Shown: positions 1-48,617 of the stretch, in pieces
How positions within the stretch are numbered: the first letter of the stretch is position 1
Layout: every line of letters begins with the position of its first letter
Source of the DNA: Azolla caroliniana
Lineage: Eukaryota > Plantae > Polypodiophyta
Length of the DNA: 64,000 nt
Direction of reading: 5' to 3'
Assembly: GCA_043228905.1 (NCBI GenBank)
Contig: JBHGNT010000004.1
Location: 9,734,001-9,798,000, forward strand
Notes under the pieces: generated by a model
Databases searched by the model: none
What the model was told of the DNA's origin: nothing
The model's input: the letters and a program-made list of their open reading frames with translations, nothing else
Translations under genes and position numbers: made by a program

Positions 1-26
1 ATGCGGCCCAACAAGCCGTCGAAAGC

Positions 27-2006
27 ATGATCAAGCGAGTCGGGTTTTTCGATGGAGGAAAAGTCCAAAAATTTCTAAACGCCTACAATGCCGAAATGGA
101 TTCAAGAGGAGTGGAGGAAGCAATGAGGCTGGAGTACTTTTGTCAAGTGGTGGCCGAACCAATCTTCGAAGAGATTAAAGAGATGCAAAAAACTCACGAT
201 TCGTGGGTGTCCTTCAAAGAAGCTTTACGAGAGTCATATGGTTACGAAGAGCAAAAGGGACGAGGTCTGCATGAGTTTCACGAATGGGTGTCATCGAGAA
301 AGACCCACCAGAGTGCTATGCATGCATTCGTTGAGTTTGAGTATCGCTTCGCTCAACTCTCGGACCAGGATCGAAGATTGGTGGGGGGGAATAAAGTTCT
401 GATGTTTGTAAAGTCCATCGATCGGAATGAAAGGAAGACCATTGGAATCCAACTCGAGGATGACAATGGTGAAAATGGCCTCACTGAGGATTGGGCCAAA
501 GTGGAAAGGGTATGCCGACAACACGATAAGAAGGAGATGAGACTCTCATCGACAACAACACGACCCACAAGGGATGTTCAAAGGAGAATGGGATGTGGCA
601 ATAAAAACCCACTGAAGGAAGAAAGCTCGAAGAGGGAAGCTTCGAAAGAACTCAACATAGAAGCCTTGATGAGAGAGGCAATAATGAACTTAAAGGCACA
701 AGTCGAGGTTGAAGAGAAGTTGAAAACAAAACCGAGCAAAATGGTGATCGACGAAGAGGAGACCTCCCGACAAATGCAGAATAATGGTGCAGCCAATAGG
801 AAGGCCCAGGTTTGGTATGATAGTACCATGGGAGAAGGTGTGAAACAAGCCACCTTCTCAACTTATGGAGGAACGACGGTCGAGAGAAGGGCCGAAGACT
901 CGAGTGCGGGAAATGCTGCTTTAAGAGTGGACGAGCATTTTAAAACACATGTTGTGTCCGAAATATCGAGTAATGAAGGTGCAAGCATGAGGGAAGCTTG
1001 CGTGATCAAGGGATGTAAAGAGTGCGAGGTCGACGTGATTGAGGCGGCAGCCATGAGAAACGACATCAAGTCGCAGATGGCTAAGGAAGAGTTCACGGCG
1101 GATGACCGTGTCGAGACTTTCCCAACACTTGATCTAGAGACTTGGGTAGTTGCGTCTGAGAGCCAACATGAAACCCAAGAGACGGAAAGTGGTGGGGAAG
1201 AAAATATTGAAGACAATGCGAATAACAACATTGAGCGAAAGATGGCTACGGATGAGAAGACGATGACCGATGGTGTCGAGGTTCTCCCCACATTTCTTCC
1301 TGAGACTTCGGCAGTTGTGCCCGAGTGTCAACGTGAGACCGGAGAGACGGAAGGTGACAGCAAGAAATCGAAGGACCAAAGTGGCAATGAGGACGATGAC
1401 CACAGACGAAGGGATCACTCCAGACCGGTTCCGAAGACTTCGGCAATTGTGCCCGAGAGCGAACATAAGACCGGAGAGATGGAAGGTGGCAACGAGGAGA
1501 TGAGGGTCGAAGCCGGCGCATACAGAAGAAGGGTTGCCAACAAGGAGGCCAAAAACAAAGCTACAATAGAGTTCGATGAAGAGCCAAAGATCAGCAAGAA
1601 AGGAAGAACTAGAATACAATCCGGATGGAAGATGACTCAGTTAGTATTCCGACCCGAACGGAAGCCGACCCGGACAAGAGTTGATCAACCAGGCCCGACG
1701 CAACTGAAAACCGGACGGAAACTAACCCGGACGAAAGTCGATCATCTTAGTCTGATTCGGCCGAATGCGAATTCGAACGGAGGCCGACCAAGCCAGAAGT
1801 TGATTGGTCGAGACCGATCCCGACAAAAGTTGAGCCGGCTTAGACAGAGGTCGAAGCAAACGAGCCCCGACATCCAATCGAGGATGTTGAGCATAAGGAA
1901 AGGCAAGCATGAGACGAGAAAGGATGATAAAGGAAAGTTAAGTGACCAAGGAGATGGCCGAGATGAAGGTGGCACGTGCACGAGGCATGAAGCGTTATGC
2001 TCGTGA
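27..2006 (+). CDS. gag: Gag-like protein with long charged tail, from a Gag-only (non-autonomous) LTR element
   Basis: The N-terminus (FFDGGKVQKFLNAYNAEMDSRGV...SWVSFKEAL...GENGLTEDWAKVERVC) aligns by eye with the Gypsy Gag at 9613 (QFDGRNVTKFLDAYKREMNQRDV...TWSEFEKTI). No PR/RT/IN follows; the PPT and LTR come about 200 bp after the stop. Three internal repeats of the type ETSAVVPECQRETGETEG are present. Confidence 0.8.
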   Translation: MIKRVGFFDGGKVQKFLNAYNAEMDSRGVEEAMRLEYFCQVVAEPIFEEIKEMQKTHDSWVSFKEALRESYGYEEQKGRGLHEFHEWVSSRKTHQSAMHAFVEFEYRFAQLSDQDRRLVGGNKVLMFVKSIDRNERKTIGIQLEDDNGENGLTEDWAKVERVCRQHDKKEMRLSSTTTRPTRDVQRRMGCGNKNPLKEESSKREASKELNIEALMREAIMNLKAQVEVEEKLKTKPSKMVIDEEETSRQMQNNGAANRKAQVWYDSTMGEGVKQATFSTYGGTTVERRAEDSSAGNAALRVDEHFKTHVVSEISSNEGASMREACVIKGCKECEVDVIEAAAMRNDIKSQMAKEEFTADDRVETFPTLDLETWVVASESQHETQETESGGEENIEDNANNNIERKMATDEKTMTDGVEVLPTFLPETSAVVPECQRETGETEGDSKKSKDQSGNEDDDHRRRDHSRPVPKTSAIVPESEHKTGEMEGGNEEMRVEAGAYRRRVANKEAKNKATIEFDEEPKISKKGRTRIQSGWKMTQLVFRPERKPTRTRVDQPGPTQLKTGRKLTRTKVDHLSLIRPNANSNGGRPSQKLIGRDRSRQKLSRLRQRSKQTSPDIQSRMLSIRKGKHETRKDDKGKLSDQGDGRDEGGTCTRHEALCS

Positions 2007-2210: not shown

Positions 2211-2225
2211 TTTGGTGGGGGTGGA
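2211..2225 (+). other. Polypurine-tract-like primer site
   Basis: TTTGGTGGGGGTGGA directly before the LTR start TGTCGTGA. The same motif abuts the LTRs at 3905 and 41545 in reverse. Confidence 0.8.
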
Positions 2226-2884
2226 TGTCGTGATGTGGCATGTCTAGTGCGAGAAAAACTCAAAAATTGAGGATCCACACACATTTCACGAATACTTGTA
2301 AAAATGAAAATAAATAAACCTAGGTCACAATGGCATTGAGTGCATGTAGAGGGTTGCAAGTAGGATTTGAAACTTGCACCTCTAAGATAAGAGGCAATTA
2401 CCTTACCACTAAAGCTACTACTAAGTGCTTTAGATGTTCTATATTTCTTTCTCATATTCAGTATTCCGTAGGAAACAAACGAACAAAACCGTGTACACAA
2501 AACCACGGTTTTAAGCCCATGGTTTCCTGCATGTCTCAAAACTGTGTGCATAGAAACCATGGCTCCAAGCCCATGGTTTTGTGCATGGACAAACCTATAA
2601 AACCCCTAGTACGGCTTGTGTAAGGGGGGGGCTCAATATGATATGACCATCATCATCACCATCCATAATATAAGCTTCTATTTCTTCTTCTTCGCATCTA
2701 TCTTGTAATTATTTATCTACTTTTGAAAGTGTACAATCTTCAATCTTCTGAAGTGTAATAGGTCTTCCTCCAATCTTACATTCACATCGCCCTCTTCTCA
2801 ATACCTTGACGGACATCCTCCTTGGTCCAAGACCCCGTTGGTCCCGCTCAAGCGAAGCACGCTCGCACGCGCATCTTCGCGACA
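2226..2884 (+). repeat. LTR type A (3' LTR of the Gag-only element)
   Basis: Termini TGTCGTGA...TCGCGACA; near-identical inverted copy at 9678-10341. Confidence 0.9.
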
Positions 2885-2894
2885 TTTTTGATTA

Positions 2895-3904
2895 TGTCGT
2901 GAAGATCCGTCACTACGCGCAGATCGTGAGGCGGAACCGCCGGGGTTCTAGACCAGAAGGATTTAGAGTCGATACAAGCTTTGGCGAGAAAGTACTTAAG
3001 ATAGATTGGGAAAGAGAGAAGATGAGATTACACGATTGATTTGATAACGAATTTCTTCTTCTTAATTTTCATAAAAGAAACCGTGTTTTTCTCCTCCCCC
3101 TTCCCTCTTTTATAGATGCTCTCATGCATATGATGCATGTGAGGGTACAAGACATGCATAAATTGCATGTTTGCCATTTGGCGCTTAAGTATTACATGTG
3201 GTGCATGCTAACCATGTCACTCATTTTAGCACTCATGGATGAGAATTTATATGTAAAAGTACAATGATAGAAATATAATTTTCAACTAAATAGCATGTCT
3301 TAATGGTAAGCCAATTGACTCCTAACTTGGAGGTGCAAGGTTCAAATCCATACTTGCCCTCCTTGTATATGTAAATATGTATATATATTTATATATTTAT
3401 TTTATCTAGTCGCCGGACGCCGGTTCGCTGGATACCGTCACCGGATACCGGTGCCTCGCCGGATGCCGACGCCGGATGCCGGTGCCGCCGCCGGATTGCG
3501 GTCGGATCACCGGCTCCATCGCTGGTCCGGTTTTGGTTGGCCAAAACCCTTTTCGAGTAGCTAGCTACCTCCACTCTTAGTTCAAGTTACCTTGAACTCT
3601 CTATGCTCCACACATAGACACAAAGATAATATCTTTTGCTCCACCTTATATATGATGAGAGCCGTATTTGTCGTGCCTATGTGGGATATCTCACAATTTT
3701 CTCTTTTCTTTTTACAAACTTTATACCCTCATATCTTGACATTTAGTTATCCATTTCTCATGTAATAAAGTGCATTCGAAACCTCCATCATTTTGTACTT
3801 AGATATTAAAAATGTTATCTTCACAATTATTGTATTACGTGATTCATACTCGATTTCGTACATTTTATGGGATTTTCACACTATTGCCGAAAATCTTCAC
3901 GACA
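2895..3904 (-). repeat. LTR type B (3' LTR of Gypsy element 1)
   Basis: Termini TGTCGTGAAG...CTTCACGACA, adjacent to the PPT at 3905; homologous to the LTRs at 40356 and 47363. Confidence 0.9.
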
Positions 3905-3976
3905 TCCACCCCCACCAAACCGCACGTCCTCCGGTACGTGCCAAGAAGAGAAGAAGTGAGATTTCGGCTACGATGA

Positions 3977-6900
3977 TCAATTAGATTCCTCCATGTCTTC
4001 ATTTTCATCCGGCCTATTATGTTCATCGTCGAGGTAATCGAGGTCAGGATCCTTGTCTTGTCTTTTCTTGAAAAGCTTTACTCTTTTTCCCGCAATGGGT
4101 ACGGCCAACCTTGATCCGTCTAGTTCCGCAAGGTGGTATGTGGCATTATCGTTGGCACTTGTCACCACATATGGCCCGAACCATCTTCTTGCGAACTTCC
4201 TTGTTGTACTATGTTCTTCAATCTTCTTGGGACGAAGTCGATGCGTGTTGTCGAGCCGAACTTTGTTCTTTACTCGGGCTGCCTTCATCATCTTTCGCGC
4301 TTTTTCTAAATCTTCAGGTCTTCTTTCAAGTTGCCTTATCCGCGCCGCTAATAACTCTTCTCGGCTCATCTCGTTCTCCCACGGTATCGCTACCCATGAG
4401 GCGATTGTCCTTTCGATGGGCATAATCGGCTTTTGTCCATACATAAGCTCCGTCGGCATATACCCTGTCACTGAGCTATGTGTCGTTCTATCGGCCCACA
4501 GGGTAATAGTCGTGGCCAATTCCCGACTCGACCGTTGCATGCCCGTACGATGGCTTTAACGATAGGTCCATGCCCTCGCTCGATCTTCCCATTTGCTTCC
4601 GGATTGTAGGCAGTCGTGAGGGAGAGCTTCACGCCTAGTCTTTCGAAGAGCTCCGTCGCTTCGTGCGCGTCCAACTCCCCTCGGTCGGCCACTATCTTCC
4701 CTACACATCCATATCGGCAAACAACATCTTCAAGTAAAAATTTGCAAACGGCTGAAGTCGTCTTATTTGTCAAGGCTCGTCCTTCCACTTGATTTGTCAA
4801 GTCTTCCCTTGCGAGCGCTAAGTACTTCATTTGTCCCACTCCCATTGGCATCGAGACCAGATCCACCATCCATTTGAAGTGAATGGTGAGTGGGTATGTC
4901 GGCTTTAACTCATCACGATGACGTATATTTGAATATATTTGGCAAGTTTCACATGTGGACACGAAATGGAGTACATCTTTGTACATGCTTGGCCACCAGT
5001 ACTTCTCCTTCAATTTTTCGAACATCGCCCATGTTCCTCTATGACCTGCCCAAGCACTCTCGTGGAATTTGGTCATCAGCGTCTCTTGCTCTTCTTTCTT
5101 TACCACCACTCGACGTGGTATTCCTGTCCTTCTTTTTGGATGTCGCTAAAGGAATCCTCCCTTCAAGAAGTATCGATAAGCTTTCTTTCGGATTCGTAGG
5201 GCCTCCTCCTTTGTCAACGAAGCATCTGTCGTCAATGTTCTTAGGAATCTACCGATGAGTAACCACTCTCCTTCGTACTCGTTCTCGTTGAAGGCGTGGA
5301 GGGTTTGCGTGTCCTGGTCTTCCGCCGACAATCGAGCCATCTTGAAGAAGTCGAGGGCGACATCTTCATCTTCCGAAACCATGTTACTTCCATTTGAAAA
5401 TCTTGCCCTCGACAGCATGTCAGCCATGGCGTTCTTCTTCCCTGCGATGTGACGGATCTCTGGGTTTAAAGACTTGATGTAGGCGATCAACCTTAGCATA
5501 GCAAGATCTGGGGTCGCACATCCCGAGACCATTCCGAGAATTGGGAGACAATCTGTCTCTATTATCACTTCTGACCCGATCAGGTAATCTTTGTCCGTCT
5601 TCACTGCCGACACAATACCCCAAAGTTCCTGCTTGACTTGGGCATATCTTTGTTGCCGTTCGCTGAGAACCTTTGCTCCGAACCGGATGGCATATCGCGC
5701 ATTATCTTCACCTTCTTGATTGATGAACCACCGATTCCGGTTGGGCTCGTATCTACGGTCACGTAAATTGGTTTCCCTTTGGCATAATCGGCCTTCCTTA
5801 GTGCCGGAGCTTCAAGAAGCAGTTTCTTTAATCTTCGCATCGCCTCTGTGTGCTCGTCTCGCCATTCGAACTTTATTCTTTTCTTTCGTAGTCCATATAA
5901 CGGTTCGGCGACATGAGCGTAGTGAGGAATCCATATATGATAAAATGCGCACGCTCCAAGGAACCTTCGAACCTCCGTTTGGTTTTCGCATTCTTCTTTC
6001 ATGTCTTCGATTGCGTTCACTTTGGATGGCGAGGGCTTCCGGCCGTATGCTCCACACAAGTGACCTACCACCAAGATCTCTGGTTGCCCGAATGCGGATT
6101 TTTCTCCCGAAAATGTCAAATTCGCATCTTCGAGCCTTTGAAGCACCTTCTCGCAATCTTTCATATGATCCGCAACGAACTTTCTACAACCTTCCTTATC
6201 TTTCGATTCATCTTTCTCCTCATCCGAACATCCTTTTATCGGAATATCATCCAAGAATGGCATCGTGATGTCCGGAATGCAATCCTTCAAGACTTTATTC
6301 ATGGCATTCACCATATGAGCCACCGAGTTCGTTGCGCCTTGGGGTAAGGTACACATCCGCACAAGCCCGATCGGAGTCCTCATGGTTGTAATGTCCCGAC
6401 TGTCGATCGCCAATTGGAATTGGTCATATCCGGAGTAGAGATCACCAATGGAGTAGATGGACCGGCCCGCAAACGCTTCGGCAAATTCGTCCACGCTCGG
6501 ACCGATTCCGGCATTTCGAATTGTCACCTTGTTGACGGGTTGAAGATCTTGGATGAATCGCAATGATCCATTCTTCTTCGGCACCGTGAACCACCTATTG
6601 GAATAAGGAGCATTCGACGGTTCTAGAATTCCCATACTCACCTTCTCCTTTAAGAGCTCGATCAGCTTCGGAAGGTGTGCTCTCGGAACCGGTATCGGTT
6701 TCAAATTCCAAGGCACATGAGGCACCGTGAAGATCACCATTGGCTCTATAACCTTTGGGTCGGCGCATCCGATTTCTTGTGGGAAGAATGCGAAAGCCTT
6801 CCCATGTCTCTCAAGCATATCGTGAAACATTCGCTCCTCTTCAGGGAGAAGGAAATCCTCCTTTCCAACTCGTAGCTTCCCCTTCGTCTCTTTGGTGAAG

Positions 6901-7421
6901 TCATGACCTATCTTCTTCGGATCTCTTAAGCTTGGATCATTAGCGACTTCCTTCATCTTTTGCCAGCTATCTTCCGGTAGCGGAACCGCAACTGGCTTGA
7001 TCTTCTTATCCACCATTTTATATTTCGTGTTGATGTCAGCATCCTTCATCGAGATGCCACGACGGTATTCATCGATGATAGCGTACATGTTGACGGAGTT
7101 AACCGAAATCACGCATTGGTTGTGAAGATAGCTCAAGTCCACGACGTCCTCGATTTCACCGATGGTGTCGTTAAATGAGGCTTCTTCCATAATATGAGTC
7201 ACGAACTCCCCTTCTTCTATTATGTTCTCTTCTTTCAGCATCTTCTCGAATTCTTGTATCCGGTGCTTGTGCTTCTTGTCGGGTAGTACTAGTTTACATG
7301 CGCCACTAGGTGTGACACATGTTGCTTCTCCTTGCAATCCACGCGCTCTTCTTTCTTGTGGGGTCTTGTGATTGCTCGGACTATTTGTGCCCCATGCTTC
7401 AATAGTCCGCTCTAAAAATCC
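3977..7421 (-). pseudogene. pol: pol (RT-RNaseH-integrase), frameshifted
   Basis: RT motifs DLYSGYDQF, LPQGATNS, FLDDIPIK; RNase H VDTSPTGIG, IETDCLP; integrase zinc finger HESAWAGH...CETC, core VDLV/VADRGE/GKIER, GPY motif. Confidence 0.92.
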
Positions 7422-9607
7422 GAGGATTCGCCTCCGAGACTATCTCGATTCCTTTCATGATTGGCTCACACTGTTAGGAATTGGACCGATCTTTGGTTGT
7501 CAAGACTCTTTATTCGTGCGAAGGCTGCTCCATTATCGAACACTTTGGTCTCCATCCGAGATGATGTGATATAAGGTTGCCCTAGGATGACAGGATGCAA
7601 CGCCGATTCTTGTACGAAGAAGTGTTGATCCATCTCCACATCCCCGATCGTGACTTTGACATTGGGACAAGCTCCGTACAAGTCCTCTGTAGACTTTGTT
7701 GCCGCATGAATCTTCCATCCGTGGTTTGTATTGATTGGCCATCTTCCCTTTTTGTAGAAGTCGGTTGACATGAGGTTGATCTCCGAGCCGTGGTCGATCA
7801 AGGCTACGACGGTCTCTTTCTTCTCCCCGATCTTTACCGGCGTCTCCATTGTCGCTCGTGCCCAATGAGGTCGAGTGTAGTGGCTGTCCACCATATCTTC
7901 ATCGATTTCGTCTCTTGCCATTGTTATGGCATTCGTTTTTGCTTTCTGCGGTTTCTCTTCTTCCTCGTCCGATTGTTGTCTCTTTCTCTTTACAAGGTTC
8001 ACGATCGTGTCATGGAACTCCTTCTTCGTAATGCCAAGCAATTCCCTCAAGGACAAAGTTACGTGGCTATCAAGAACTCGTTCTTCGAGAATCTTCTTTA
8101 GGTCCGTCATCTGCTCTATGTCCGACCTTAGCTTATAGGTAGGTATGGTCCTTGTCCTCCGAGCGGGGTCTTCGACACCAACCTTCACGGGCCGAACCGT
8201 TTCTTCAACTCATATGCTCGGCTCCCCTTTTCGGCTTGATTCTCGTTCCTCCGTTTGTAAAGGTCGACTCGTCTCCGCATCGTCCTTCTTTTCCGCGTTC
8301 CTTGTTTCATGTGTTTTTGATGGGCCTTGCTCTTCTATTCTCTTTCTCTTTTCTTCGACGAACACCTCGTGGTTGTCGCACATCACCTCTGCGAGTATGG
8401 TGTTGTCGTCCACCGGATCCGACCACCTGGTTATGGTTTGCACGTTTCGGTCCGCAAGCTCTACCTCGTTCGATGTGACTTTTCCCTTCTTCTCATATTC
8501 GAGAACGGAAGTCCAAAACTTTGCTCCCGCTCTAGCAGCTTCAGTCTTGTCTTTCCCGACTCTTATTCCGGCCGACGCAACATAGTGCATCGCATCCACA
8601 TGAGTCGCATCGGCATCCTCCATAGATTTCTTCATTCCTCCTCTTCCGAAATTCACCCGTAGGGGTCTTCTAGTCTCGCTTGAGCAGATCATGTTGTCCT
8701 CTATGTATACGATATTTTGTCGAATCGCCTCTCGAAGGCTCGCACAATCCCTTCTCATGTGGTCCATGCTATCGCACCACACGCATCTAAAGGGTTCTTT
8801 TCCTTTAGGGCTCCGACGATTCATGTTGGCTACCGTGACCTTCTCGAACTTCTTCGCTAGCTCTTCAATGATGTCATCATCAATCTTCTTTTCTTCCACG
8901 TTACTTTGTCTCAGCGGCTTAGCTACTTTCGGCGGTCTTGCTTTCTCCGTGGTAGTCGGTCCCGTCAAGTCGGTGTCATCAACCCATTGGCGACGCTTGT
9001 CGAGCCTATTGCATGCCCGCTTCACCGCGATCCAGTCCGCTACGAGCCCATTTGCTTAGGTATCATCTTCGAGAAGAGTCCCCAACTCCCGTCTATCCTT
9101 TATGTCCACGGCCTTCAAGAAGTACAAAGTCTTGTCCTCTTCCTATTCTTGGTCCGTATTGGGGAGACGACTAAACATCTGGTCGAATTCGTCGTACACC
9201 CTCAAGACGCTCATCTTCTTATTCTTCTTCTCTATCCACTTCATCAGGGCATGTCGAGTCATCCTCGTTGAGTCTTCAGTCACGAACTCCGCTAGTATCG
9301 TTTTCTCGAACTCGGACCATGTTGTCTTACCTTCTTGAAGCTCGATGACGCGTCTTTGGATGTTGTTGGCGACAACTCTCTTGAAGCTTGCGATTTGACG
9401 TGCCTCGGACACGTCCCTTTGATTCATCTCCCTCTTATATGCATCAAGGAACTTCGTAACGTTCCTTCCATCGAATTGGCCCTCGAGCTCTACGACACGA
9501 TCGACAGCCTTCTCCACGCTCGCGTCGTTGTCCCGAGATCTCATCATTTGCTCGACGATTAGCATCATCCTTTCGAGCTCTCCCGCTTGGTTGCTTGAGG
9601 ACGCCAT
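7412..9607 (-). pseudogene. gag: gag-protease ORF with in-frame stops
   Basis: Zinc knuckle CVWCDSMDHMRRDC; aspartic protease ALIDHGSEIN...VILGQPY. The Gag and PR segments share one frame. Confidence 0.88.
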
Positions 9608-9648
9608 CTCCAAGTATTAATCTCGACTTGATCCTTCCTACCGCCTCG

Positions 9649-9666
9649 TTCACATCGGGTTCACCA
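9649..9666 (-). other. Primer binding site, tRNA-Trp
   Basis: Plus strand TTCACATCGGGTTCACCA matches the recalled plant tRNA-Trp 3' end (TTCACGTCGGGTTCACCA) with one mismatch. Confidence 0.8.
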
Positions 9667-9677
9667 CTTAAAAAAAA

Positions 9678-10341
9678 TGTCGCGAAGATGCGCGTGCGAG
9701 CGTGCTTCGCTTGAGCGGGACCACCGGGGTCTTGGACCAAGGAGGATGTCCGTCAAGGTATTGAGAAGAGGGCGATTGAAGGTGAATGTAAGATTGGAGG
9801 AAGACCTATTACACTTCAGAAGATTGAAGATTGTACACTTTCAAAAGTAGATAAATAATTACAAGATAGATGCGAAGAAGAAGAAATAGAAGCTTATATT
9901 ATTGATGGTGATGATGATGGTCATATCATATTGAGCCCCCCCCTTACACAAGCCGTACTAGGGGTTTTATAGGTTTGTCCATGCACAAAACCATGGGCTT
10001 GGAGCCATGGTTTCTATGCACACAGTTTTGAGACATGCAGGAAACCATGGGCTTAAAACCGTGGTTTTGTGTACACGGTTTTGTTCGTTTGTTTCCTACG
10101 GAATACTGAATATGAGAAAGAAATATAGAACATCTAAAGCACTTAGTAGTAGCTTTAGTGGTAAGGTAATTGCCTCTTATCTTAGAGGTGCAAGGTTCAA
10201 ATCCTACTTGCAACCCTCTACATGCACTCAATGCCATTGTGACCTAGGTTTATTTATTTTCATTTTTACAAGTATTCGTGAAATGTGTGTGGATCCTCAA
10301 TTTTTGATTTTTTCTCGCACTAGACATGCCACATCACGACA
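9678..10341 (-). repeat. LTR type A serving as the 5' LTR of Gypsy element 1
   Basis: Reverse complement of 2226-2884 with a few substitutions and one small indel. Confidence 0.9.
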
Positions 10342-12556
10342 GCGTCGGTCGCAAAGATGACAACCGTCTGTGTTTTACTTACAGTAGTTGCAGAGAAAGA
10401 GTGGCACTTACATCAGATGGATGTCAAGAATGGCTTCTTGCAAGGCGAGCTTGAGGAACAGGTGTACACGGTACAACCCCCGGATTTCACTCTGGACTGA
10501 ACACTTCGACGGTCTGCCGATTGAAGAAGTCCCTTTACGGACTAAAGCAAGCCCCGCGTGCTTGGAACGCAAAAATCACACAACGATTGTGTCGGATGGG
10601 ATTTGCGACGTCTAGATCGGACTCTTCACTATTCATTTGGAAAGGTTGACTCGGGCCGATTAGTATTTTACTTTATGTTGATGACCTGGTCATCACGGGC
10701 GCCTTCCTAGGTGAAATCAACCGCGTAAAGCTCCAGCTCGCGGCATCATTTGACATGAAGGACCTAGGGAACCTTCACTACTTCCTCGGGATCGAAGTGA
10801 TCCGTACCCCCGAAGGCATATTGATCATCAGCCAACGTCATTATGCATTGAATATGCTCTTCAAGTTTGGGATGGCAAATTGTAAGCCCATCTCGACCCC
10901 TCTGGACAAAAATGTAAAGCTTCGCCGAGATTCAAGAAAGCTGTGCGACCCTACACGGTTTCGACAAATTGTCAGAAGCCTCATCTACTTGACGATTACT
11001 GGGCCGGATCTCAGCTACCTGGTCATCTTAATCAGTCAATTTATGTCGCAGACCACGGCCAAACACTTTCAGTGCGTGCAAAGGATATTGCGATATGTCA
11101 GCGGCACGAAATACATGGCGTTGTTGTATCAGGCAGGCATAACTGAACAGTTGGTTGGCCACACGGATGCCGATTGGGCCGGAAACGCCAATGATCGTAG
11201 ATCCACATCCGGATATGCCTTCTCATTAGGAAGTGTGGCGATCGCATGGAGCAGCAAAAAGCAGCTGATAGTGGCACTGTCGAGCACAGAGGTTGAATAT
11301 CGAGGGGCGATTGTTGCTACGTGCGAAGTCATCTAGTTGAAACGGCTATTACGGGATCTGCATGTAGAGGTGTCTGATCCGACGACGATCTATTACGACA
11401 ACCTCAACAGTATCCACCTTGCGAAAAACCCCGTGTTCCACGCCCGGACCAAGCACATTGAGGTGCATTACCATTTTGTCCACGAGCGGGTCCTTTCAGG
11501 TGAAGTCTAACTAGCGTATGTTCCGACGGATCGGCAGGTTGGTCTCGACAAGTTACGACATTTCTCAGGTGAGCTAGGGTTGTGTCACCTCGACACGCCA
11601 AACTTGAGGGGGTGAAAAGAAGAATAGGAACAAGAGCATGAAAGGATCAGAGGTATTCATTGCGGCGAATGTGACCGTGACGCTGAATTGGATGGAGAAT
11701 TCGATTTTGAACCGGCTGAAGAAGCCGAAGGAAGAATCAAGGGCCATAATCGTAGGAAAGAGTCGCAGACAGCCGAATCTGGGGGAGATAAGACCAAGAC
11801 GAAGAGGTGGTCGAAAGTTGTCAAAGGCCTGAAGACTGAAGACGAATTGGAGACAACCAATTCGGATGAGAGGGGAATTGAATCGGAAGTGTTCGATTCA
11901 ATCAAAATGTTCAATTTGGATACGCCAAATCAACGGAAGGCCAAACGGAGAAAAGGGCAGTGAAGGAACTGCCAACACCGTGATAGCAAGGGAGCTGAGA
12001 AGGGTCGAACAAGCAGAAAACCCGACCAGAAGGGTCGAGGCACGCGGATTCAAACAAGTCGAGGAGTGAAGAAAGAAGGAACCGGAGCATAGATTCGGAA
12101 GGGCAAACAGAACCTCAAGTTTTGCTGTAGGGGGAGTGTTGAGTGACAAGCTCAACATTCGGCGTGTAATACGGTGCGTAACCCAGTGCGTAGACTGGGT
12201 GTGTGAAATAGTACGCATAATGTAGCCGTAGTGGTGCGTAAACCGTGAGGCCGTTAGTATGGTATTGCTCGTAAGAAATAATTTTGGGAGTTATTGTAGT
12301 AGGCTCATTTATGAGCAGTCAAGTATTGTCAGTACTTGTGTCAGCCCAATTGTCAGGGCTTGTATAAAAGATGCTCACTGAGCACGATGTATATACAAAG
12401 CATCATTATTTTTGAAATAGAACTAAGTTGTCTACTCTCTATCTGTCTCTCCATCTCCATCTCCATCTTTGTGTTTCCTGAGTTTACCGAACTGACTTAT
12501 TTTCGAACTGTGTACTATGTGTTTACGCACACCCTTCCGCACACATATTCTTTACA
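10342..12556 (+). mobile_element. Ty1/Copia retrotransposon, 3' part (RT, RNaseH, 3' extension, PPT, 3' LTR 12137-12556)
   Basis: HQMDVKNGFL, LYVDDL, MKDLGNLHYFLGIE, DADWAG...RRSTSG, SSTEVEY; PPT AGGGGGAG; LTR TGTTGA...TTTACA. Confidence 0.92.
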
Positions 12557-13138
12557 ATCATCATTATTGGTCTTACCATTATGACGAGGACAAGGTGGTG
12601 GTTGAACAATGGGAGCAGGAACCTGAGAAACTGCAACTTTAATGGTAGTACTGATGAGGCTCATTGCATCTTCTACTTTCATGAAACTTCTTTTTTTCTA
12701 TTCATGGAAAGCTGAAGCTTGAGAGAAGTCTTCTCTATTTAGCACCGAAGAAGGAGTAGAGCTATTGTTTTCTGCACACAACACAAGACTTTCTTCACTA
12801 AGAAGGTAGACGAGGAAGAAGGGCAACACCAACGAAGAGTAGAGTTCCAATGGTTCCTGATAGCATTGTCTATGCGACCACGGAGTAATCGAGCTATGGC
12901 AGCCCACATGAGCTTTTATGGCCTGATCTGATCGACCAGGTATTCCTTTACTTATTAGAGACCAGTTTCGATCTCCATACTTCTCAACTAGTCGATGGAG
13001 AGCCGCGTGTTCGTTGGGGCTCCATGGACCTTTCCCTCGATCATTCGGGTTGTGGATGGTCGACGCAGACAGAGATGCGTGAGAGACCGATGCAGATGTA
13101 TTGGTCAAGCTTGAGAGCGCCCTGGAAGCTAATACCAA
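12557..13138 (-). pseudogene. Intronless R2R3-MYB pseudogene (MYB44/73/77-like subgroup)
   Basis: R2 KGPWSPNEHAALHRLVEKYGDRNWSLISKGIPGRS, then a deletion and frameshift, then R3 [25 protein letters not shown] in another frame. Truncated by the Copia LTR. Confidence 0.85.
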
Positions 13139-16668: not shown

Positions 16669-18299
16669 TCAAATCGTTGCCTAATTCAGTACACTATTCC
16701 AAAAGAATAGGGTGGAGCTGATCTGAAGGAGATGTGATAGCAGAACTCTTACTTTCAGCCACGTTGGCAGCTATCTCCTCATCTGTTGCAGCGTCATCAA
16801 CACCAGACACATCATGTGCCGTCCTTAATCCACAAAATTCTACAATAACAAGGCAGCTATTTAGGATAGCTAATTAGCTACTTTACTAAACTATGGTAGT
16901 AGCTACGATAGCTAATTAGCTAGTACGATAGCTAATTAAGATAGCTAATTAGCTAGTACGATAGCTAATTAGCTACTTTCCTCAACTATGGTAGTAGGTA
17001 GGATAGCTAATTAGCTACTATGGTAGCTAATTAGCTACTTTACTCAACTATGGTAGTAGCTAGGATAGCTAATTAGCTACTTTACTAACTATGGTAGTAG
17101 CTAGGATAGCTAATTAGCTACTTTACTCAACTATGGTAGTAACTAGCATAGCTAATTAGCTACTTTACTAACTATGGTAGTAGCTAGGATAGCTAATTAG
17201 CTACTTTACTAACTATGGTAGTAGCTAGGATAGCTAATTAGCTACTTTACTCAACTATGGTAGTAACTAGCATAGCTAATTAGCTACTTTACTAACTATG
17301 GTAGTAGCTAGGATAGCTCATTAGCTACTATGGTAGCTAATTAACTACTTTACTCAACTATGGTAGTAGCTAGGATAGCTAATTAGCTACTTTACTCAAC
17401 TATGGTAGTAGCTAGGTGTTATGTACACATAACGTTGGTGAGGGTAGGTCACTAATATTTACATTAGTGAAGGGTATGTTCACTATTATTAAAAAGGGGA
17501 CTAATGATTGGATAGAATGAATGATATGTGCATGCACTATCATGATTTAGACAACCAATGAATAGAGAGCCTTTTAGAAAGGCACATCTATTCAAGGGGC
17601 CTAGGAAAAGGTATAAATATGAGGCTTAGCTACCCTCATAGGGATCATCACGTCGGAAGGCTGCTGTCGTAGACACCGGTGGTGCGGGCTAGGCTTTCGT
17701 CTCGACAATCGTGTTTATCTCTTCCAAGGTATTAGTCATCCTAATATCCGGCGGTATGGGACGTCGGTGGTAGGTTGGCTATGTCTAGATCATAGCTCGG
17801 GGGTGGTCGGGTGGAATGGGTTCTTCTATCCAATCTATTTTCTTCCTTTTTACTTGATTTGGTCTATTGATTAGTAATAGACTCTTAACAGTGGTATCGG
17901 AGCTTTTACTAACAATTTTTTTGTTGTTTTGATGTTTTTTGCGTGTGAGCGAGGGGGATCTAACAAGGCTCGTCATGCTCTTCTCAGGATCAAAACAACA
18001 CTCTAAACCCGGTATTCTTCTTTTTTGATCTCTTCTCTTTTTCTATTATGCGTTCTTTATGGTCGAATCAAATTGGTATTACGTTTTATTCTCTTTCTTT
18101 CTACCTCCTACTACGCTACAATTTTACTTATTATTATGCATCGGGCCGAGCGTGTTTGCACTAATCGCACACGCTCAACTCATGGCCTTTTGCATATTGC
18201 GATATATATCCCACTCTCTCCTCTCTTGAACTCTTACGATAATAATTATTCTTGTGCATTGGGTCGAGCGTGTTTGCTCTAATCGCACACGCTTATCTC

Positions 18300-18660
18300 A
18301 TGGCCGTTTTGCATATGATGTTGAGTATACCACTCTTCCCCTCTATTGAGCCATCACTTGGCCGATTCTAAGGGATGATGTGGCCTTGACGAGGTGTATG
18401 TTGCGTACCTATGCCACTCTACTCTCTATTAAGCCATCAATTGGCCGATTCTATGGGATGTTGTGGCCTTGACAAGGTATATGTAGCTTACATATGCCAC
18501 TTTCCTTTTTAATTAGCCATCAATTGGCCGATTCTAAGGGATGATGTGGCCTTGACGAGGTATATGTCACTTACCTATGCCACTTTCCTCTTTAATTAGC
18601 CATTACTTGGCCGATTCTAGGGATATGTGGTGGTCTTGAGGAGGTGCATGTCAACTACCC
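18300..18660 (+). repeat. ~88-bp tandem repeat (about 4 copies) in the chromovirus 5' leader
   Basis: Recurrent TTGGCCGATTCTAAGGGATGATGTGGCCTTGACGAGG. Confidence 0.8.
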
Positions 18661-40355: not shown

Positions 40356-43300
40356 TGTCGTAAAGATCCGTCACTACGCGCAGATCATGAGGCGGAACTG
40401 TTGTGGTTCTGGACCGGAAGGATTCGACGTTAGTATAAGCTTTAGCAAGAAAGGAATTAAGATAGATTGAAAGAGAGAGAGATTGAGAAAAGATAGAACA
40501 CTTGATTTTAGATTGAGAGAGAGATTAAGAACTCTTGACTTTAGATTTCAGAAACAAGTTACACGATCAATTCGATAACGAATTTTCTTCTTCTTAATTT
40601 CATAACCAAAAGAGCCTAACCCTCTTTTATAGATGCTCTTTTATAGATGCTCTTTTCATCCCCCTCTTTTATAGATGCTCTCATGCATATGATGCATGTG
40701 AGGGTACAAGACATGCATAAAATGCATGTTTTCCATTTGGCGCTCATGTATTACATGTGGTGCATAATAACCATATCACTCATTTTAGTTCTCATGTATA
40801 AGAATTTACATGTAAAAGTACAATAATAGAAATAAAAATTCAACTAAATGTTATGGCTTAGTGGTAAGCCTACTAACTCTTAACTAGGAGGTGCAAGGTT
40901 CGAATCCACACTTGCACTCCTTGTGTATACATATATTTATTTATTTATATATATATCTACCCGGTCACCGGATGACGCCGGTTCGCCGGATGCCGGTCGC
41001 CACCGATTACCGTTGATTGCTGGATGACGTCAGTTCCCCGGATGTCGCCGGTTACCGTCGGTTACCGGATTTCGGTTACGTCGCCGGATGCCAGATGCCG
41101 GTTACCGCTCGGTCACCGAGTCCCGATTACATTGCCGGTCCGGTTTTGGTTGGGCAAATCCTTTGCAAGTAGCTAGGCCACACCCATTCAGCCAATAGCT
41201 TAGTTCAAGTCACCTTGAACTCTATATGCTCCACACATAGACACAAAGATAATAGCTTTTGCTCTACCTTATATTTGGTGAGATCCTTATTTCCTGTCTA
41301 TGTGGGATATCTCACAGTTTTATTTTTCTCTTCTTCCTTCTTATACTTCACTCCCACATAACTTGTCACTTAGATGTCCGTTTCTTATGTAGTAAAGTGC
41401 ATCTCTTCAAGATCTTCGTCTTTTGTACTAAGATATTAAACTTACTTAGAATCAGTATATTCACTATTATTGTTTTATATGATTGACACTTGATTTCGTA
41501 TGTCTTATGTAATTTTCACACCATTGCCGAAAATCTTCACGACATCCACCACCACCAAACCGCACGTCCTCCGGTACGTGCCAAGAAGAGAGAAAGTGAG
41601 ATTTTGGCTACGGTGATCAATAAGATTCCTCCATGTCTTCATTTACAACCGCCCTATTATGTTCATCGTCGAGGTGATCGAGGTCAGGATCTTCGTCTTG
41701 TCTTTTCTTGAAAATCTTTACTCTTTTTCCCGCAATGGGTACGATCAACCTTGATCTGTCTAGCTCTGCAAGGTGGTATGTGGCATTATCGTTGGCACTT
41801 GTCACCACATACGGCCTAAACCATCTTCTTGCGAACTTTCTTGTTGTACTGTGTTGATTGTCAAGGCTGTTGTCGTAAACCAAAACCTAATCTCCTTCTT
41901 CAATCTTCTTGGGACGAAGTCGATCCGTGTTGTCGAACCGAACTTTGTTTTTTACTCGGGTTGCCTCCATCATCTTTTGCGCTTTTTCTAGATCTTCAGG
42001 TCTTTTTTCAAGTTGCCTTATCAGCACCGCTAATAACTCTTCTCGGCTCATCTTGTTCTCCCACGGTATCGCTACCCATGAGGCAATCGTCCTTTCGATG
42101 GGCATTACCGGCTTTTGTCCATACATAAGCTCTGTCGGCATATACCCTATCACTGAGCTGTGTGTCGTTCTGTTGGCCCACAAGGCATAGGGTAATAGTC
42201 GTGGCCAATTCCCGACTCGATCATTGCATGCCCGTACGATGGCTTTGACGATAGGTCCATGTCCTCACTCGATCTTCCCATTCGCTTCCGGATTGTAGGC
42301 AGTCATGAGGGAGAGCTTCACGCCTAGTCGTTCGAAGAGCTCCGTCGCTTCGTGCTCATCCAACTCCCCTCGGTTAGCCACTATCTTCCCCACACATCTG
42401 TATCGGCAAAGAACCTCTTCAAGTAGAAATTTGCAAACGACTGAAGTCGTCCTATTTGTCAAGGCTCGTCCTTCCACTTGATTTGTCAAGTCTTCCCTTG
42501 CCAGCACTAAGTACTTCATTTGTCCCACTCCCATTGGTATCGAGACCAAATCCACCATCCATTTGAAGTGTATGGTGAGTGGGTATGCCGGTCGTAACTC
42601 ATCACGATGACGTATATTTGAATGTATTTGGCAAGTTTCGCATGTGGACACGAAATGGAGTACATCTTTGTACATGCTTGGCCACCAATACTTCTCCTTC
42701 AACTTTTCGAACGTCGCCCATGTTCCTCTATGACCTGCCCAAGTACTCTCGTGGAATTTGGTCATCAGCCTCTCTTGCTCTTCTTTCTTCACCACCACTC
42801 GACATGGTATTCTTGTCCTTCTTTTTGGATGTCGCTAAAGGAATCCTCCCTTCAAGAAGTACCGGTAAGATTTCTTCCAGATTCGTAGGACCTCCTCCTT
42901 TGTCAACGAAGCATCTGCCGTCAATGTTCTTAGGAATCTACCGATCAGTAACCACTCTCTTTCGTACTCGTTCTCGTTGAAGGCCCGGAGGGTTTGCGTG
43001 TCCTGGTCTTCCGCCGATAATCGAGCCATCTTGAAGAAGTCGAGGGCGACATCTTCATCTTCCGAAACCATGTCACTGCCATTTTCAAATCTTGCCCTCG
43101 ACAGCATGTCAGCCATGGCGTTCTTCTTCCCTACAATGTGACGGATCTCTAGGTTTAAAGACTTGATGTAGGTGATCCACCTTAGCATAACAAGATCTAG
43201 GGTCGCACATCCCGAGACCATTCCGAGAATTGGGAGACAATCTGTCTCTATTATCATTTCCGACCTGATCAGGTAATCTTTGTCCGTCTTCACTGCCGAC

Positions 43301-46300
43301 ACAATACCCTAAAGTTCCCGCTTGCCTTGGGCATATCTTTGTTACCGTTCGTTGAGAATCTTTGCTCCGAACCGGACGGCATATCGCGTATTATCTTCTC
43401 CTTCTTGATTGATGACCCACCTGATTCCGGTTGGGCTCGTATCGACGGTCATGTAAATCGGCTTCCCTTCAGCATAGTCGTCCTTCCTTAGTGCTAGAGC
43501 TTCGAGAAGTAGTTTCTTCAATCTTCGCATCACATTTGTGTGCTCGTCTCGCCATTCGAACTTCATTCTTTTCTTTAGTAGTCCATATAACGGTTCCGCG
43601 ACATGAGCGTAGTGCGGAATCCAAATATGATAAAATGTGCATGCTCCAAGGAACCTTCTAACCTCCGTTTGGTTTTCGCATTCTTCTTTCATGTCTTGGA
43701 ACGCGTTCACTTTGTATGGCGAAGGCTTCCGGCCGTATGCCCCACACAAGTGACCTACGACCAAGATCTCTGGTTGCCCGAATGCAGATTTTTCTCCCGA
43801 AAATGTCAAATTCGCATCTTCGAGCCTTTGAAGCACCTTCTCGCAATCTTTCATATGATCTGCAACGAACTTTCTACAACCTTCCTTATCTTTCAATTCA
43901 TCTTTCTCCTCATCCAAACATCCTTTTATCAGAATATCATCCAAGAATGGCATCGTGATGTCCGAGATGCAATCCTTCAAGACTTTATTCATGGCATTCA
44001 CCATATGAGCTACCGAGTTCGTTGCGCCTTGGGGTAAGGTACACATCCGCATAAGCCCGATAGGAGTCCTCATGGTTGTAATGTTCCGACTGTCGATCGC
44101 CAATTGGAATTGGCCATATCCGGAGTAGAGATCGCCAATGGAGTAGATGGACTGGCCTTCAAACGCTTCGGCAAATTCGTCCATGCTCGGACCAATTCCG
44201 GCATTTCGAATTGTCACCTTGTTGACGGGTTGAAGATCTTGGATGAATCGCAACGATCCATTCTTCTTCGGCACCGTGAACCACCTATTGGAATAAGGAG
44301 AATTCGACGGTTCTAGAATTCCCATACTCACCTTCTCCTTTAAGAGCTCGATTAGCTTCGGAAGGTGTGCTCTCGGAACCGGTATCGGTTTCAAATTCCA
44401 AGGCACATGAGGCACCGTGAAGATCACCATCAGCTCTATAACCTTTGGGTCGGCACATCCGATTTCTCGTGGGAAGAATGCGAAAGCCTTCCCATGTCCC
44501 TCAAGCATATCACGAAACATTCGCTCCTCTTCAAGGGGAAGGAAATTCTCCTTTCCAACTTGTAGCTTCCCCTTCGTCTCTTTGGTGAAGACATGACCTA
44601 CCCTCTTCGGATCTCTTAAGCTTGGATCGTTAGCGACTTCCTTCATCTTTTGCCAACTATCTTCTGGTAGCAAAACCACCACTGGATTGATCTTCTTATC
44701 CACCATTTTATATTTCGTGTTGATGTCAGCTTCCTTCATCGAGATGCCACGATGGTATTCATCGATGATAACATACATGTTGACAGAGTTAACTAAAATC
44801 ACGTAATCATCGTGAAGATAGCTCAAGTCCACGAGTTCCTCGATTTCACCGATGGTGTCGTTAAATGAGGCTTCTTCCATAATATGAGTCACAAAGTCTC
44901 CTTCTTCTATTATGTTTTCTTCATTCAGCATCTTCTCGAATTCTTGTATTCGACGCTTGTCCTTCTTGTCGGGTAGTACTAGTTTACATGCACCACTAGG
45001 TGTGACACATGTTGCTTCTCCTCGCAATCCATGCACTCTTCTTTCTTGTGGGGTCTTGTGATTTCTCGGACTATTTGTGCCCCATGCTTCAATAGTCCAC
45101 TCTAAAAATCCGAGGATTCGCCTCTGAGACTATCTCGATTCCTTTCATGATTGGCTCACACCGTTAGGAACTGGACCGATCTTTGGTTGTCAAGACTCTT
45201 TATTCGTGCGAAGGCTGCTCCATTATCGAACACTTTGGTCTCCATCCGAGATGATGTGATATACGGTTGTCCTAGGATGACAAGATGCGACGCCGATTCT
45301 TGCACGAAGAAGTGTTGATCCATCTCCACATCCCCAATCATGACTTTGACATTGGGACAAGCTCCGTACAAGTCCTCCGTAGACTTTGTTGCTGTGCGAA
45401 TCTTCCATCCGTGGTTTGTATTGATTGGCCATCTTCCTTTTTTGTAGAAGTCGGTTGACATGAGTTGATCTCTGAGCCGTGGTCGATCAAGGCTACCACA
45501 GTCTCTTTCTTCTCCCCGATCTTCACCGGCATCTCCATTGTCGTTGGTGCCCAATGAGGTCGAGTATAGTGGTTGTCCACCATATCTTCATCGACTTCGT
45601 CTCTTGCCATCGTTATGACATTCGTTTTTGCTTTTTGTGGCTTCTCTTCTTCCTCGTCTGATTGTTGTCTTTTTCTCTTTACAAAGTCCACAATAGTGTC
45701 ATGGAACTCCTTCGTAATGCCGAGTAATTCCCTCAAGGACAAAGTCACGTGGCTATCAAGAACTCGTTCTTCGAGAATTTTCTTTAGGTCCGTCGTCTGC
45801 TCTATGTCCGACTTTAGCTTATACGTAGGTATAGTCCTTGTCCTCTGAGCGGGGTCTTCGACACAACCTTCACGGGCCGAACCGTTTCTTCAACTTTTAT
45901 GCTCAGCTCCCCTTTCCGGCTTGATTCTCGTTCCTCCATTTGTAAAGGTCAACTCGTCTCCACATCGTCCTTCTTTTTCGCATTCCTCGTTTCATGTCTT
46001 TTTGATGGGCCTTGCTCTTCTATTCTTTTTCTCTTTTCTTTGACAAACACCTCGTGGTAGTCGCACATCACTTCCGGGAGTATGGTGTTGTCGTCCACCA
46101 GATCTGACCATCCAGTTATACTTTGTACACTTCGATCCGCAAGCTCTACTTCGCTCAAAGTGACTTTTCCCTTCTTCTCATATTCGAGAACGGAAGTCCA
46201 AAACTTTGCTCCCGCTCTAGCAACTTCAGTCTTGTCTTTCCCGACTCTTATTCCAGCCGACGCAGCATAGTGCATTGCATCCACATGAGTTTCATCGGCA

Positions 46301-48617
46301 TCCTCCATAGATTTCTTCATTCCTCCTCTTCTGAAATTCACCCGTAGGGGTCTTCTAGTCTCGCTCGAGCAGATCATGTTGTCATCTATGTACACGATAT
46401 TTTGTCAGATCGCCTCTCGAAGGCTCGCGCAATCCCTTCTCATGTGGTCCATGCTATCACACCACACGCATCTAAAGGGTTCTTTCCCTTTAGGGCCCCG
46501 ACAATTCATGTTGGCTAGCGTAACCATCTCAAACTTCTTCGCCGGTTCTTCGATGATGTTGTCATCAATCTTCTTTTCGTCCGGGCTACTTTGTTTGGGT
46601 AGCTCAGCTACTTTCGGTTGTCTAGTTTTCTCCGCAACAGTCGATCCCGCCAAGTCGGTGTCATCAACCCACTCACGACGCTTGTCGAGCCTATTGCATG
46701 CTCGCTTTACCGCAACCTAGTCCGCCACAAGCCCATTTGCTTGGGTATCCTCTTCGAGAAGAGTCCCCAATTCTCGTCTATCCTGCATGTCCACAACTTT
46801 CAAGAAGTACAAAGTCTTGTCTTCTTCAAGCAACACTTGGTCCGTGTTGGGGAGACGACGAAACATCTGGTCGAATTCGTCATACACCCTCGAGGCACTC
46901 ATCTTCTTATTCTTCTTCTCTATCCACTTCATCAGGGCATGTCGAGTCATCCTCGTTGAGTCTTCAATTGCGAGCTCCGCTAGTATCGTTTTCTCGAACT
47001 CGGACCATGTTGTCTTACCTTCTTGAAGTTCAATGACACGTCTTTGGACGTTGTTGGCGACACCTCTCTTGAAGCTTGCGATTTGACGTGCTTCGGACAC
47101 GTCCCTCTGATTCATCTCCCTTCTATATGTATAAAGGAACTTCGTAACGTTCCTTCCATCAAATTGACCCTCGTGCTCTACAACACGGTCGACGGCCTTC
47201 TCCATGTTCGCATCGTTGTCTCGAGATCTCATCATTTGTTTGACGATTACCATCATCCTTTCAAGCTTTCGCGCTTCGTTTCTTGGGGACGCCATCTCCA
47301 AGTATTAATCTCGGCTTGATCCTTCCTACCGTCTCTTTCACGTCAGGTTCACCACTTAATTATGTCGTGAAGATTCGTCACTACGCGCGGATCGTGAGGC
47401 AGAACCGACGGGGTTCTGGACCGGAAGGATTCGACGTTGGCACAAGCTTTAGCGAGAAAGGAATTAAGATAGATTGAAAGAGAGAGAGATTGAGAAAAGA
47501 TAGAACGCTTGATTTTAGATTGAGAGAGAGATTAAGAACTCTTGACTTTAGATTTCAGAAACAAGTTACACGATCAATTCGATAACGAATTTTCTTCTTC
47601 TTAATTTCATAACTAAAAGAGCCTAACCCTTCTTCTTTTTCATCCCCCTCTTTTATAGATGCTCTCATGCATATGATGCATGTGAGGGTACAAGACATGC
47701 ATAAAATGCATGTTTTCCATTTGGCGCTCATGTATTACATGTGGTGCATAATAACCATATCACTCATTTTAGCTCTCATGTATAAGAATTTACATGTAAA
47801 AAAGTACAATTATAGAAATAAAAATTCAACTAAATGTTATGGCTTAGTGGTAAGCCTACTAACTCTTAACTAGGAGGTGCAAGGTTTGAATCCACACTTG
47901 CACTCCTTGTGTATATATATATATGTATACATATATATATATATTTATTTATATATCTATCCGGTCGTCGGATGCCGGATGACGCCGGTTCGCCAGATGC
48001 CGGTTGCTGCCGATTATCGTCAATTGCCAGATGTCGTCGGTTACCGTCGGTTACCGGCATCCAGTTCTGTTACCATTCGTCCGGTTTTGGTTGGGCAAAA
48101 CCTTTGCAAGTAGCTAGGCCACACCCATTCATCCAATAGCTTAGTTCAAGTCACCTTGAACTCTCTATGCTCGACACATAGACACAAAGATAATAGCTTT
48201 TGCTCTACCTTATATATGGTGAGATCCTTATTTCCTGTCTATGTGGGATATCTCACAGTTTTATTTTTCTCTTCTTCCTTCTCATACTTCACTCCCACAT
48301 AACTTGTCACTTAGATGTCCGTTTCTTATGTAGTAAAGTGCATCTCTTCAAGATCTTCGTCTTTTGTACTAAGATATTAAACTTACTTAGAATTAGTATA
48401 TTCACTATTATTGTTTTATATGATTGACACTTGATTTCGTATGTCTTATGTAATTTTCACACCATTGCCGAAAATCTTCACGACATCCACCACCACCAAA
48501 CCGCACGTCCTCCGGTACGTGCCAAGAAGAGAGAAAGTGAGATTTGGGCTACGGTGATCAAGGTGATTTCGTACGTCTTATGTAATTTTCACACCATTGC
48601 TGAAAATCTTCACGACA
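40356..48617 (-). mobile_element. Gypsy element 2 (same family as element 1), type-B LTRs 40356-41544 and 47363-48485, nested in Copia
   Basis: Gag-PR-RT-RH-IN closely similar to 3977-9607; tRNA-Trp PBS 47337-47354; likely 4-bp TSD ATGT/ACGC (two C>T changes). Confidence 0.95.
40854..40907 (+). promoter_or_regulatory. tRNA-like Pol III internal promoter inside an LTR (antisense to the element)
   Basis: A box TGGCTTAGTGG (40854-40864) and B box GGTTCGAATCC (40897-40907) at tRNA spacing; Lys(CTT)-like loop CTCTTAA. Confidence 0.7.

Follow-up and report, generated by a model that had tools for sequence, protein, structure and literature searches.

In a 64,000-nt stretch of the Azolla caroliniana assembly GCA_043228905.1 (523 Mb; contig C4, JBHGNT010000004.1, positions 9,734,001-9,798,000, forward strand; hereafter the window), a gag-pol retrotransposon carries as its 5' long terminal repeat (LTR) the LTR of a different, Gag-only element, and the switch between the two lies in the short spacer next to the primer binding site (PBS). 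A/B swaps at the PBS were found at ten other loci as well, in both directions. We consider it likely that such swaps arose, as a mechanism of the two families, when strong-stop DNA jumped between co-packaged Gag-only and gag-pol RNAs. That the insertion at the window locus is a head-out swapped multimer appears somewhat probable, and taken together, these two propositions are the explanation of the family-wide swaps and the window insertion that we prefer, with reasonable confidence. It is from the chimeras only that co-packaging of the two RNAs is suggested. Below, A denotes the LTR of the Gag-only element, B the LTR of the gag-pol element, and intA and intB their interiors.

An LTR switch next to the primer binding site

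The type B interior (3917..9648, minus strand) encodes gag (CCHC), protease, reverse transcriptase (RT), RNase H, and integrase and is broken by stops and frameshifts. At its 3' end follow a polypurine tract (PPT; 3905..3916, minus) and a 3' LTR-B (B3; 2895..3904, minus). At its 5' end lie an 18-nt PBS complementary to tRNA-Trp (9649..9666, minus; one C>T change in this copy), a spacer junction termed J2 (9667..9677, minus), and an LTR-A (A5; 9678..10341, minus), whose U3 end closes the whole insertion on the right. J2 is ordered LTR-A, T8, AAG, PBS. The T8 run is of A type and AAG is the end of the normal B spacer; therefore, the switch lies 3 nt 5' of the PBS, within the spacer. This exact pattern of A tip, T run, AAG, and PBS occurs once in the 523 Mb. 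The LTR-A/B-interior chimera is real in the assembly. A preliminary description of this DNA had recognized the type-A 5' LTR on a B interior and quoted the junction letters correctly; it placed the swap exactly at the PBS, which holds as far as the neighborhood goes but passes over the three B spacer bases that stay with the interior.

The adjacent Gag-only element comprises a Gag-like open reading frame (ORF; 3..2006, plus; frame open to a start ~80 bases upstream of the window), a PPT identical in sequence to that of type B (2214..2225, plus), and a 3' LTR-A (A3; 2226..2884, plus). As the preliminary description had stated, A3 and A5 are near-identical, differing by 4 substitutions and one 5-bp indel in 659 bp (0.6%), and they are mutual nearest copies in our sisterhood alignment (30 LTR-A and 34 LTR-B copies). 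Ordinary A/A LTR pairs (n = 5) differ by 2-5 substitutions, and the A3/A5 pair is typical of sisters. Between A3 and B3 lies junction J1 (2885..2894, unstranded; TTTTTGATTA), a tail-to-tail join of the two 3' LTRs. Insertion of a B element into an A spacer was rejected, as no B 5' LTR is present there and there is no target site duplication (TSD) at J1 or J2.

Gypsy 2 (40356..48485, minus), a B/B copy with the spacer TAATTAAG, serves as a control within the window. The chimeric B interior had been described as having the same internal sequence as Gypsy 2; it does belong to the same family, but the two are only 91.9% identical, and its nearest relatives are at ~98%. The outer flanks of Gypsy 2 are ATGT/ACGC, and before its 5' LTR, at 48486-48617, stand a PPT and the first 54 bp of an LTR, a relic of a head-to-tail dimer.

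The A and B element families

Pairs of LTR-A copies, ~3.0 kb apart, enclose one long ORF without a pol match. The N-terminus of this ORF aligns with B Gag (27% identity over 143 aa, E 9e-18), and it is by homology to B Gag only that we call it Gag-like. Neither a CCHC motif nor pol homology was found in the type A ORF, and a Pfam search returned no family for it or for two B gag pieces. At their 5' LTRs, A elements have a T-run spacer, normally TTTT and usually 4-5 nt long; an A tip followed by a T run and a PBS with an A-type start was seen at 8/28 other top LTR-A loci, in agreement with the earlier expectation that Gag-only interiors with a Trp PBS are the usual context of LTR-A. A related subfamily, A', has the spacer TCATT. 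For type B, we assessed normal pairing among the 29 nearest relatives of the 5' end of the window interior. All 29 carry the B LTR end with the spacer TAAT[T/C/A]AAG; accordingly, A/A gag-pol copies are absent from this set, and we rejected the idea that LTR-A is common on gag-pol copies (0/29).

The families have in common the 18-nt tRNA-Trp PBS, the PPT, ~55 bases before the 3' LTR, and the LTR tips. Beyond the tips, their LTRs are alike only in one 58-bp patch (84%), so the preliminary description was right that little other LTR sequence is common to both. The PBS matches genomic tRNA-Trp(CCA) over 18 nt at 4/4 loci scanned with ARAGORN. TSDs are 4 bp long, and 55/62 flanking 4-mers fit NCGN. 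Matches to the tRNA-Trp 3' end number 63 genome-wide, with arrays at C8:17.80-17.82 Mb (~1.2 kb apart), C16:4.99-5.11 Mb, and C5:10.11 Mb. Tandem A'/A Gag-only elements with a common internal LTR also occur (L032:1-5300; copies at C4:9.31, 9.51, and 9.53 Mb), and by these copies LTR swaps occur between Gag-only subfamilies too.

LTR swaps elsewhere in the genome

We read out ten other chimeric loci from end to end. Four are B-intA-A monomers: C3:11.73 Mb (TSD ACGG/ACGG, spacer TAATTAAT), C10:1.20 Mb (ACGG/ACGG, TAATAAAT), C14:16.92 Mb (an A' case; ATGC/ACGC, TAATCATT), and C10:20.03 Mb (GCGT/GCAT, full B spacer). One is B-intA/intB-B (C17:12.24 Mb; GCGT/GCGT, again TAATTAAT), with LTRs 2/1001 apart. 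Two are head-to-tail A-intB-B-intA-A dimers, at C9:8.80 Mb (GCGT/GCGT) and on C342 (CCGT/CCGT), whose outer LTRs are 8/663 and 5/314 apart. The remaining three are B-intB-B-intA'-A' (C19:5.05 Mb; ACGC/ACGC), B''-intA'-A'-intB-B (C3:2.29 Mb; AGGT/ACGT, internal spacer TCAAG), and A-int-B' with a fold-back end (C6:12.59 Mb; ACGT/ACGT, spacer TTTAG). We dropped C10:11.87 Mb and C721 from the count as diverged B-like LTRs rather than chimeras and omitted C12:8.62 and C14:15.36 Mb, where the 5' or 3' end is unreadable.

TSDs are exact at 7/10 of these loci and have one mismatch at the other 3/10. Since pairs of random flanks match as a TSD with a chance of 0.085 per pair, seven exact TSDs in ten would arise by chance at ~4e-6 (calculated by hand). 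Matched TSDs led us to reject unequal recombination between neighbors as the source. Nine of the ten loci are on chromosome-scale contigs, and the stretches read contain no N. Only one internal A/B switch was seen among the ten, so the switch points are not scattered through the interiors.

The spacer bases nearest the PBS usually go with the interior (the last 1-5 bases). A-tip spacers end in AG in 7 cases and in TT in 213, and all 7 AG-ending ones are followed by a B-type start. In the other direction, a B tip with PBS and A-type start gave 13 pattern matches, 9 of them with an A or A' interior. The last base of the B spacer is G in 522 places and T in 10; an A-type interior follows 5/10 T-ending and at least 4/522 G-ending spacers (Fisher p 9e-8), the latter being a lower bound from an exact pattern search. 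Among the ten T-ending spacers, five are on B-subfamily LTRs, all five with A-type interiors, and one is on a diverged LTR with a Gag-only-like interior. The C17 copy combines sister B LTRs, an internal A-to-B switch, and a T-ending spacer; therefore, the base travels with the A template.

Two B elements at C7:20.42 and C14:5.82 Mb, counted apart from the chimeras, have LTR ends made of a 13-nt A'-type tip and the spacer TCAAG. As both LTRs at C7:20.42 Mb carry this tip, a once-swapped end seems to have been propagated in a helper lineage.

Structure of the window insertion

The preliminary description ended the unit at 2226 and expected a 5' LTR-A upstream of it. Instead, we found the left end on the unplaced contig C461, and it starts with an LTR-B (B5). 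This LTR is the best other match to B3, and the two are mutual nearest among the 34 LTR-B copies (24 substitutions in 987; 4 rare alleles in common). Before B5 stands Copia sequence ending in GCGC; after it come TAAT-TTTT, the PBS, and an A interior (junction J0). J0, on C461, and J2, in the window, are hybrid spacers of reciprocal composition. The predicted GCGT/GCGC TSD was found, with the right copy, GCGT, at 10342..10345 (plus) and the left copy, GCGC, on C461. The right part of the host Copia (10346..12561, plus) extends from RT to the 3' LTR (12137-12556) and then ATCAT; its left part is on C461. The Copia LTR on C461 matches the one in the window at 92%, the 5-bp TSD ATCAT flanks the Copia on both contigs, and its RT reading frame is continuous across the insertion site.

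The region lies within a tandem segmental duplication (C4:8.67-9.80 Mb; units ~170-200 kb apart, 97.5-99.4% identity), which provides empty-site controls for many insertions. At three paralogs (C4:9.57, 9.36, and 9.20 Mb) the site is empty, and the C461 flank is joined to the window flank over a single GCGC. Both flanks branch outside the three paralogs and carry 1.0-1.2% private change. C461 can be fitted collinearly into the gap that precedes the window, and a genome scan found one left and one full right junction of this insertion. The TSD, the continuity of the Copia, and the empty sites therefore indicate one insertion, bounded by the U3 end of B on the left and the U3 end of A on the right. 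C461 is probably not a second filled copy, as only one left junction of this kind was found, although a collapsed copy would escape such a scan. At C4:11.824-11.828 Mb, an independent A' insertion occupies the homologous GCGC site of another Copia copy, a possible hot spot.

At J1, two PPT-preceded LTRs are each followed by their own spacer (TTTT+TG for A, TAATCAA for B, overlapping in TTG) in place of a TSD or host DNA. This is the only spacer-type tail-to-tail join among the 7 loci that match the two-tip pattern. The C6:12.59 Mb locus is a second insert bounded by two U3 ends (ACGT/ACGT), which makes an integration step at U3 ends plausible. At C6:12.594-12.598 Mb, the 3' LTR folds back at a natural GGTTTTGG..CCAAAACC hairpin of the B-type LTR, giving a 378-bp-arm palindrome (arms 366/378).

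Alternative explanations and points against the multimer

Several observations weigh against a head-out swapped multimer, or against intermolecular transfer as its source. The J2 spacer is 11 nt long, out of register with the usual 4-5 nt of A, so slippage or added bases must be assumed. B3 and B5 differ by 2.4% vs 0.6% for A3 and A5 (Poisson p 5e-4 for equal rates). The Gag interiors of C461 and the window differ at 34/1395 sites (2.4%); they have 3 alleles in common that are absent from 19 other copies, and a tree gives no supported clade. This divergence of the Gag interiors implies that the locus is no simple two-cDNA dimer or that the contig end is a mosaic. Sequence order is scrambled in the 1 kb before the window. 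A gap of 100 N ends 1010 bases upstream of the window, and the first 500 bases after it (C4:9,732,989-9,733,491) consist of an inverted segment that contains a third Gag interior and a deleted LTR-A, to which a second copy of 23 bp of Copia flank is joined. This piece is what an un-inverted ancestor would look like and is unexplained by the multimer. A truncated third LTR-A just upstream has a rare allele in common with A3 and A5, so that the insert may contain two tandem Gag interiors unless the contig end is a mosaic; for the C461 Gag interior and the fold-back piece, we found no near-identical source in the genome (best 98%). Short-read contigs speak neither for nor against the structure, as they drop rare paths: on 2835-2945, none bridges J1 in the 32 of 989 pieces listed, and 20 sequencing runs, all as short-read contigs, contain no more than 0.60 of the 2850-9712 words. 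Lastly, the spacer signature is not absolute, given that 4/10 T-ending spacers are on diverged B-like LTRs with B-like interiors and that the full B spacer is kept at five B-to-A junctions.

In an unlikely alternative, two normal cDNAs (B-intB-B and A-intA-A) inserted tail-to-tail and a later inversion between their inverted PBS regions made both chimeric junctions. Reversing one J0-J2 inversion does restore two normal elements, the PBS regions have ~30 similar bases in common, and the upstream fragment joins the same Copia flank to LTR-A and an A interior. However, both breakpoints fall 3-4 nt outside the shared sequence, and the same junction type is found in TSD-flanked monomers without an inverted partner. 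A head-out dimer, hence both cDNAs together, would be needed in any case.

It is less likely still that host repair recombined finished, unintegrated cDNAs at the PBS without co-packaging. J1 resembles host end-joining with its 3-bp overlap, so free cDNAs did meet, and the junctions with a whole B spacer would also fit. Yet a crossover inside the PBS would never split the spacer, in-register hybrid spacers of 8 nt and 5 nt exist, and the C17 copy pairs an internal non-homologous switch with sister LTRs.

Misassembly at the contig end is comparably improbable: the gap with the fold-back piece beside it, the unplaced state of C461, the divergence of the two Gag interiors, and the fact that all four A3 differences are transversions speak for it, but the two contigs are consistent in the TSD, in the TSD and reading frame of the Copia, and in the three empty sites, J0 and J2 mirror each other on different contigs, and nearly all other chimeras (9/10) stand on chromosome-scale contigs in stretches read without N. 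A simple fold-back read was rejected, since the 6.8-kb center is not palindromic.

Proposed mechanism

For the swaps, we prefer intermolecular plus-strand transfer in one particle, as the preliminary description had proposed; its further premise, that PBS complementarity alone guides the transfer, needs amending. Strong-stop DNA annealing by the PBS alone would carry the whole A spacer, but B AAG is kept at J2; the acceptor minus strand would therefore have to extend beyond the PBS by a few bases. A Gag-only (A) RNA and a Phygy-like helper gag-pol (B) RNA would be copied in one particle, each minus strand ending 0-5 nt beyond the PBS. The plus-strand strong-stop DNA of one element would then anneal to the PBS of the other and its mismatched end would be extended, such that spacer length would follow the LTR donor and the final bases the interior. 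Two intermolecular jumps could give a heterodimeric circle, from which displacement at both LTRs would release swapped monomers; with displacement at only one, the product would be the A-intB-B-intA-A dimer, of which two examples were found. At the window locus, both transfers would have been intermolecular, yielding B-intA-A and A-intB-B; integrase would have used two U3 ends at one site, and the unprocessed free U5 ends would have been joined by a 3-bp overlap.

More tentatively, the second transfer may be routinely intermolecular between RNAs with unrelated LTRs in one particle, perhaps in ~1 in 50 to 1 in 100 insertions; a heterodimeric circle would be the intermediate and would resolve into swapped monomers, head-to-tail dimers, or head-out multimers. 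Under this broader proposal, integrase might pair U3 ends of different cDNAs, the 1-5 kept spacer bases might mark an RNase H stop beside the tRNA primer, and rescued swapped copies might leave the parasite U5 tip in a propagating helper lineage.

Relation to known elements

Phygy elements were described from a moss. They form a non-chromovirus Ty3/gypsy clade with a 4-bp NCGN TSD and a tRNA-Trp PBS, according to the portion of the account available to us (Neumann et al. 2019, PMC6317226). Type B resembles this clade in its 4-bp NCGN TSD (the 55/62 flank 4-mers above), its 18-nt tRNA-Trp PBS, its length of ~7.8 kb (7.7-10 kb in the clade) with a polyprotein filling the interior, and its protease-RT-RNase H-integrase order without a chromodomain, with a C-terminal ORF piece that has no Pfam family. 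This likeness is one of features, as opposed to a phylogeny of RT, RNase H, and integrase. The same portion of that account mentions no Gag-only partner or chimeras.

Type A likewise resembles TR-GAG elements, as far as these are covered by the excerpted source (Chaparro et al. 2015, PMC4350172), in being <4 kb with LTRs, PBS, PPT, and a single Gag ORF without pol. It differs from coffee TR-GAG in having a 4-bp NCGN TSD rather than a 5-bp TSD, and so combines the workings of a TR-GAG with ends of Phygy type. For TR-GAG1, that source, so far as consulted, reports that no autonomous partner was found; for type A, a partner is named by the common PBS, PPT, LTR tips, target site, and chimeras (Gag 27%).

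LTR swapping between autonomous and non-autonomous partners in soybean was reportedly described by Du and colleagues in 2010, as propagating lineages with two like LTRs; the Azolla copies are single inserts with unlike LTRs. In both cases, a helper/parasite pair would be marked by its exchange of LTRs. Template-switching complexes, in which several LTRs lie within one TSD and the outer ones are nearly identical, have been credited to co-packaged RNAs (Sabot and Schulman 2007, PMC1950507; see also, in part, PMC4079214). The C9 and C342 loci match this anatomy: each has a single TSD and three direct LTRs, the outer two being nearly identical. In the published model, near-identical members of one family switch at the first transfer through homology in the R region, and direct repeats result (PMC1950507); in contrast, the window insert has inverted (head-out) halves with unlike outer LTRs, and the A/B swaps involve non-homologous LTRs with the switch at the PBS. 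Two RNAs are packaged, and the second transfer is PBS-directed and described as intramolecular in the sections we draw on (PMC6894440, PMC5086612, PMC5371799, PMC12657518). The canonical second transfer so described stays within one minus-strand template, whereas the Azolla fossils suggest that transfer was intermolecular and reciprocal. Ty1 and Ty3 do not inherit their PBS from the tRNA, according to the same sources (PMC6894440, PMC5086612, PMC5371799). Our literature search found neither PBS-level swaps of unlike LTRs with a spacer signature nor head-out inserts, most subscription papers being outside its coverage.

Co-packaging, template switching, LTR swapping, and Gag-only elements are each known already; what is new is which copying step the switch occurs in, and the signature it leaves. 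If our reading is correct, these loci would be base-level genomic evidence that the plus-strand jump crosses between different co-packaged elements, would identify, from fossils alone, which element helps a Gag-only parasite, and would document an integration product with a U3 end on either side. LTR finders that require similar direct LTRs cannot report inserts whose LTRs are unlike or inverted, and LTR-pair dating would misread such inserts.

Additional observations

At five places in the genome, two LTR tips stand 4 bp apart (ACGT, ACGC, ATGT), as if the TSD of an older element had been re-used as a target. Elsewhere in the window (17417-24530), a 7.1-kb LTR element with 474-bp LTRs that are 99% identical lies within a 20-bp TAGCTAAT satellite; the 9.20-Mb paralog has a near-identical element too, but there it is located inside the Copia.

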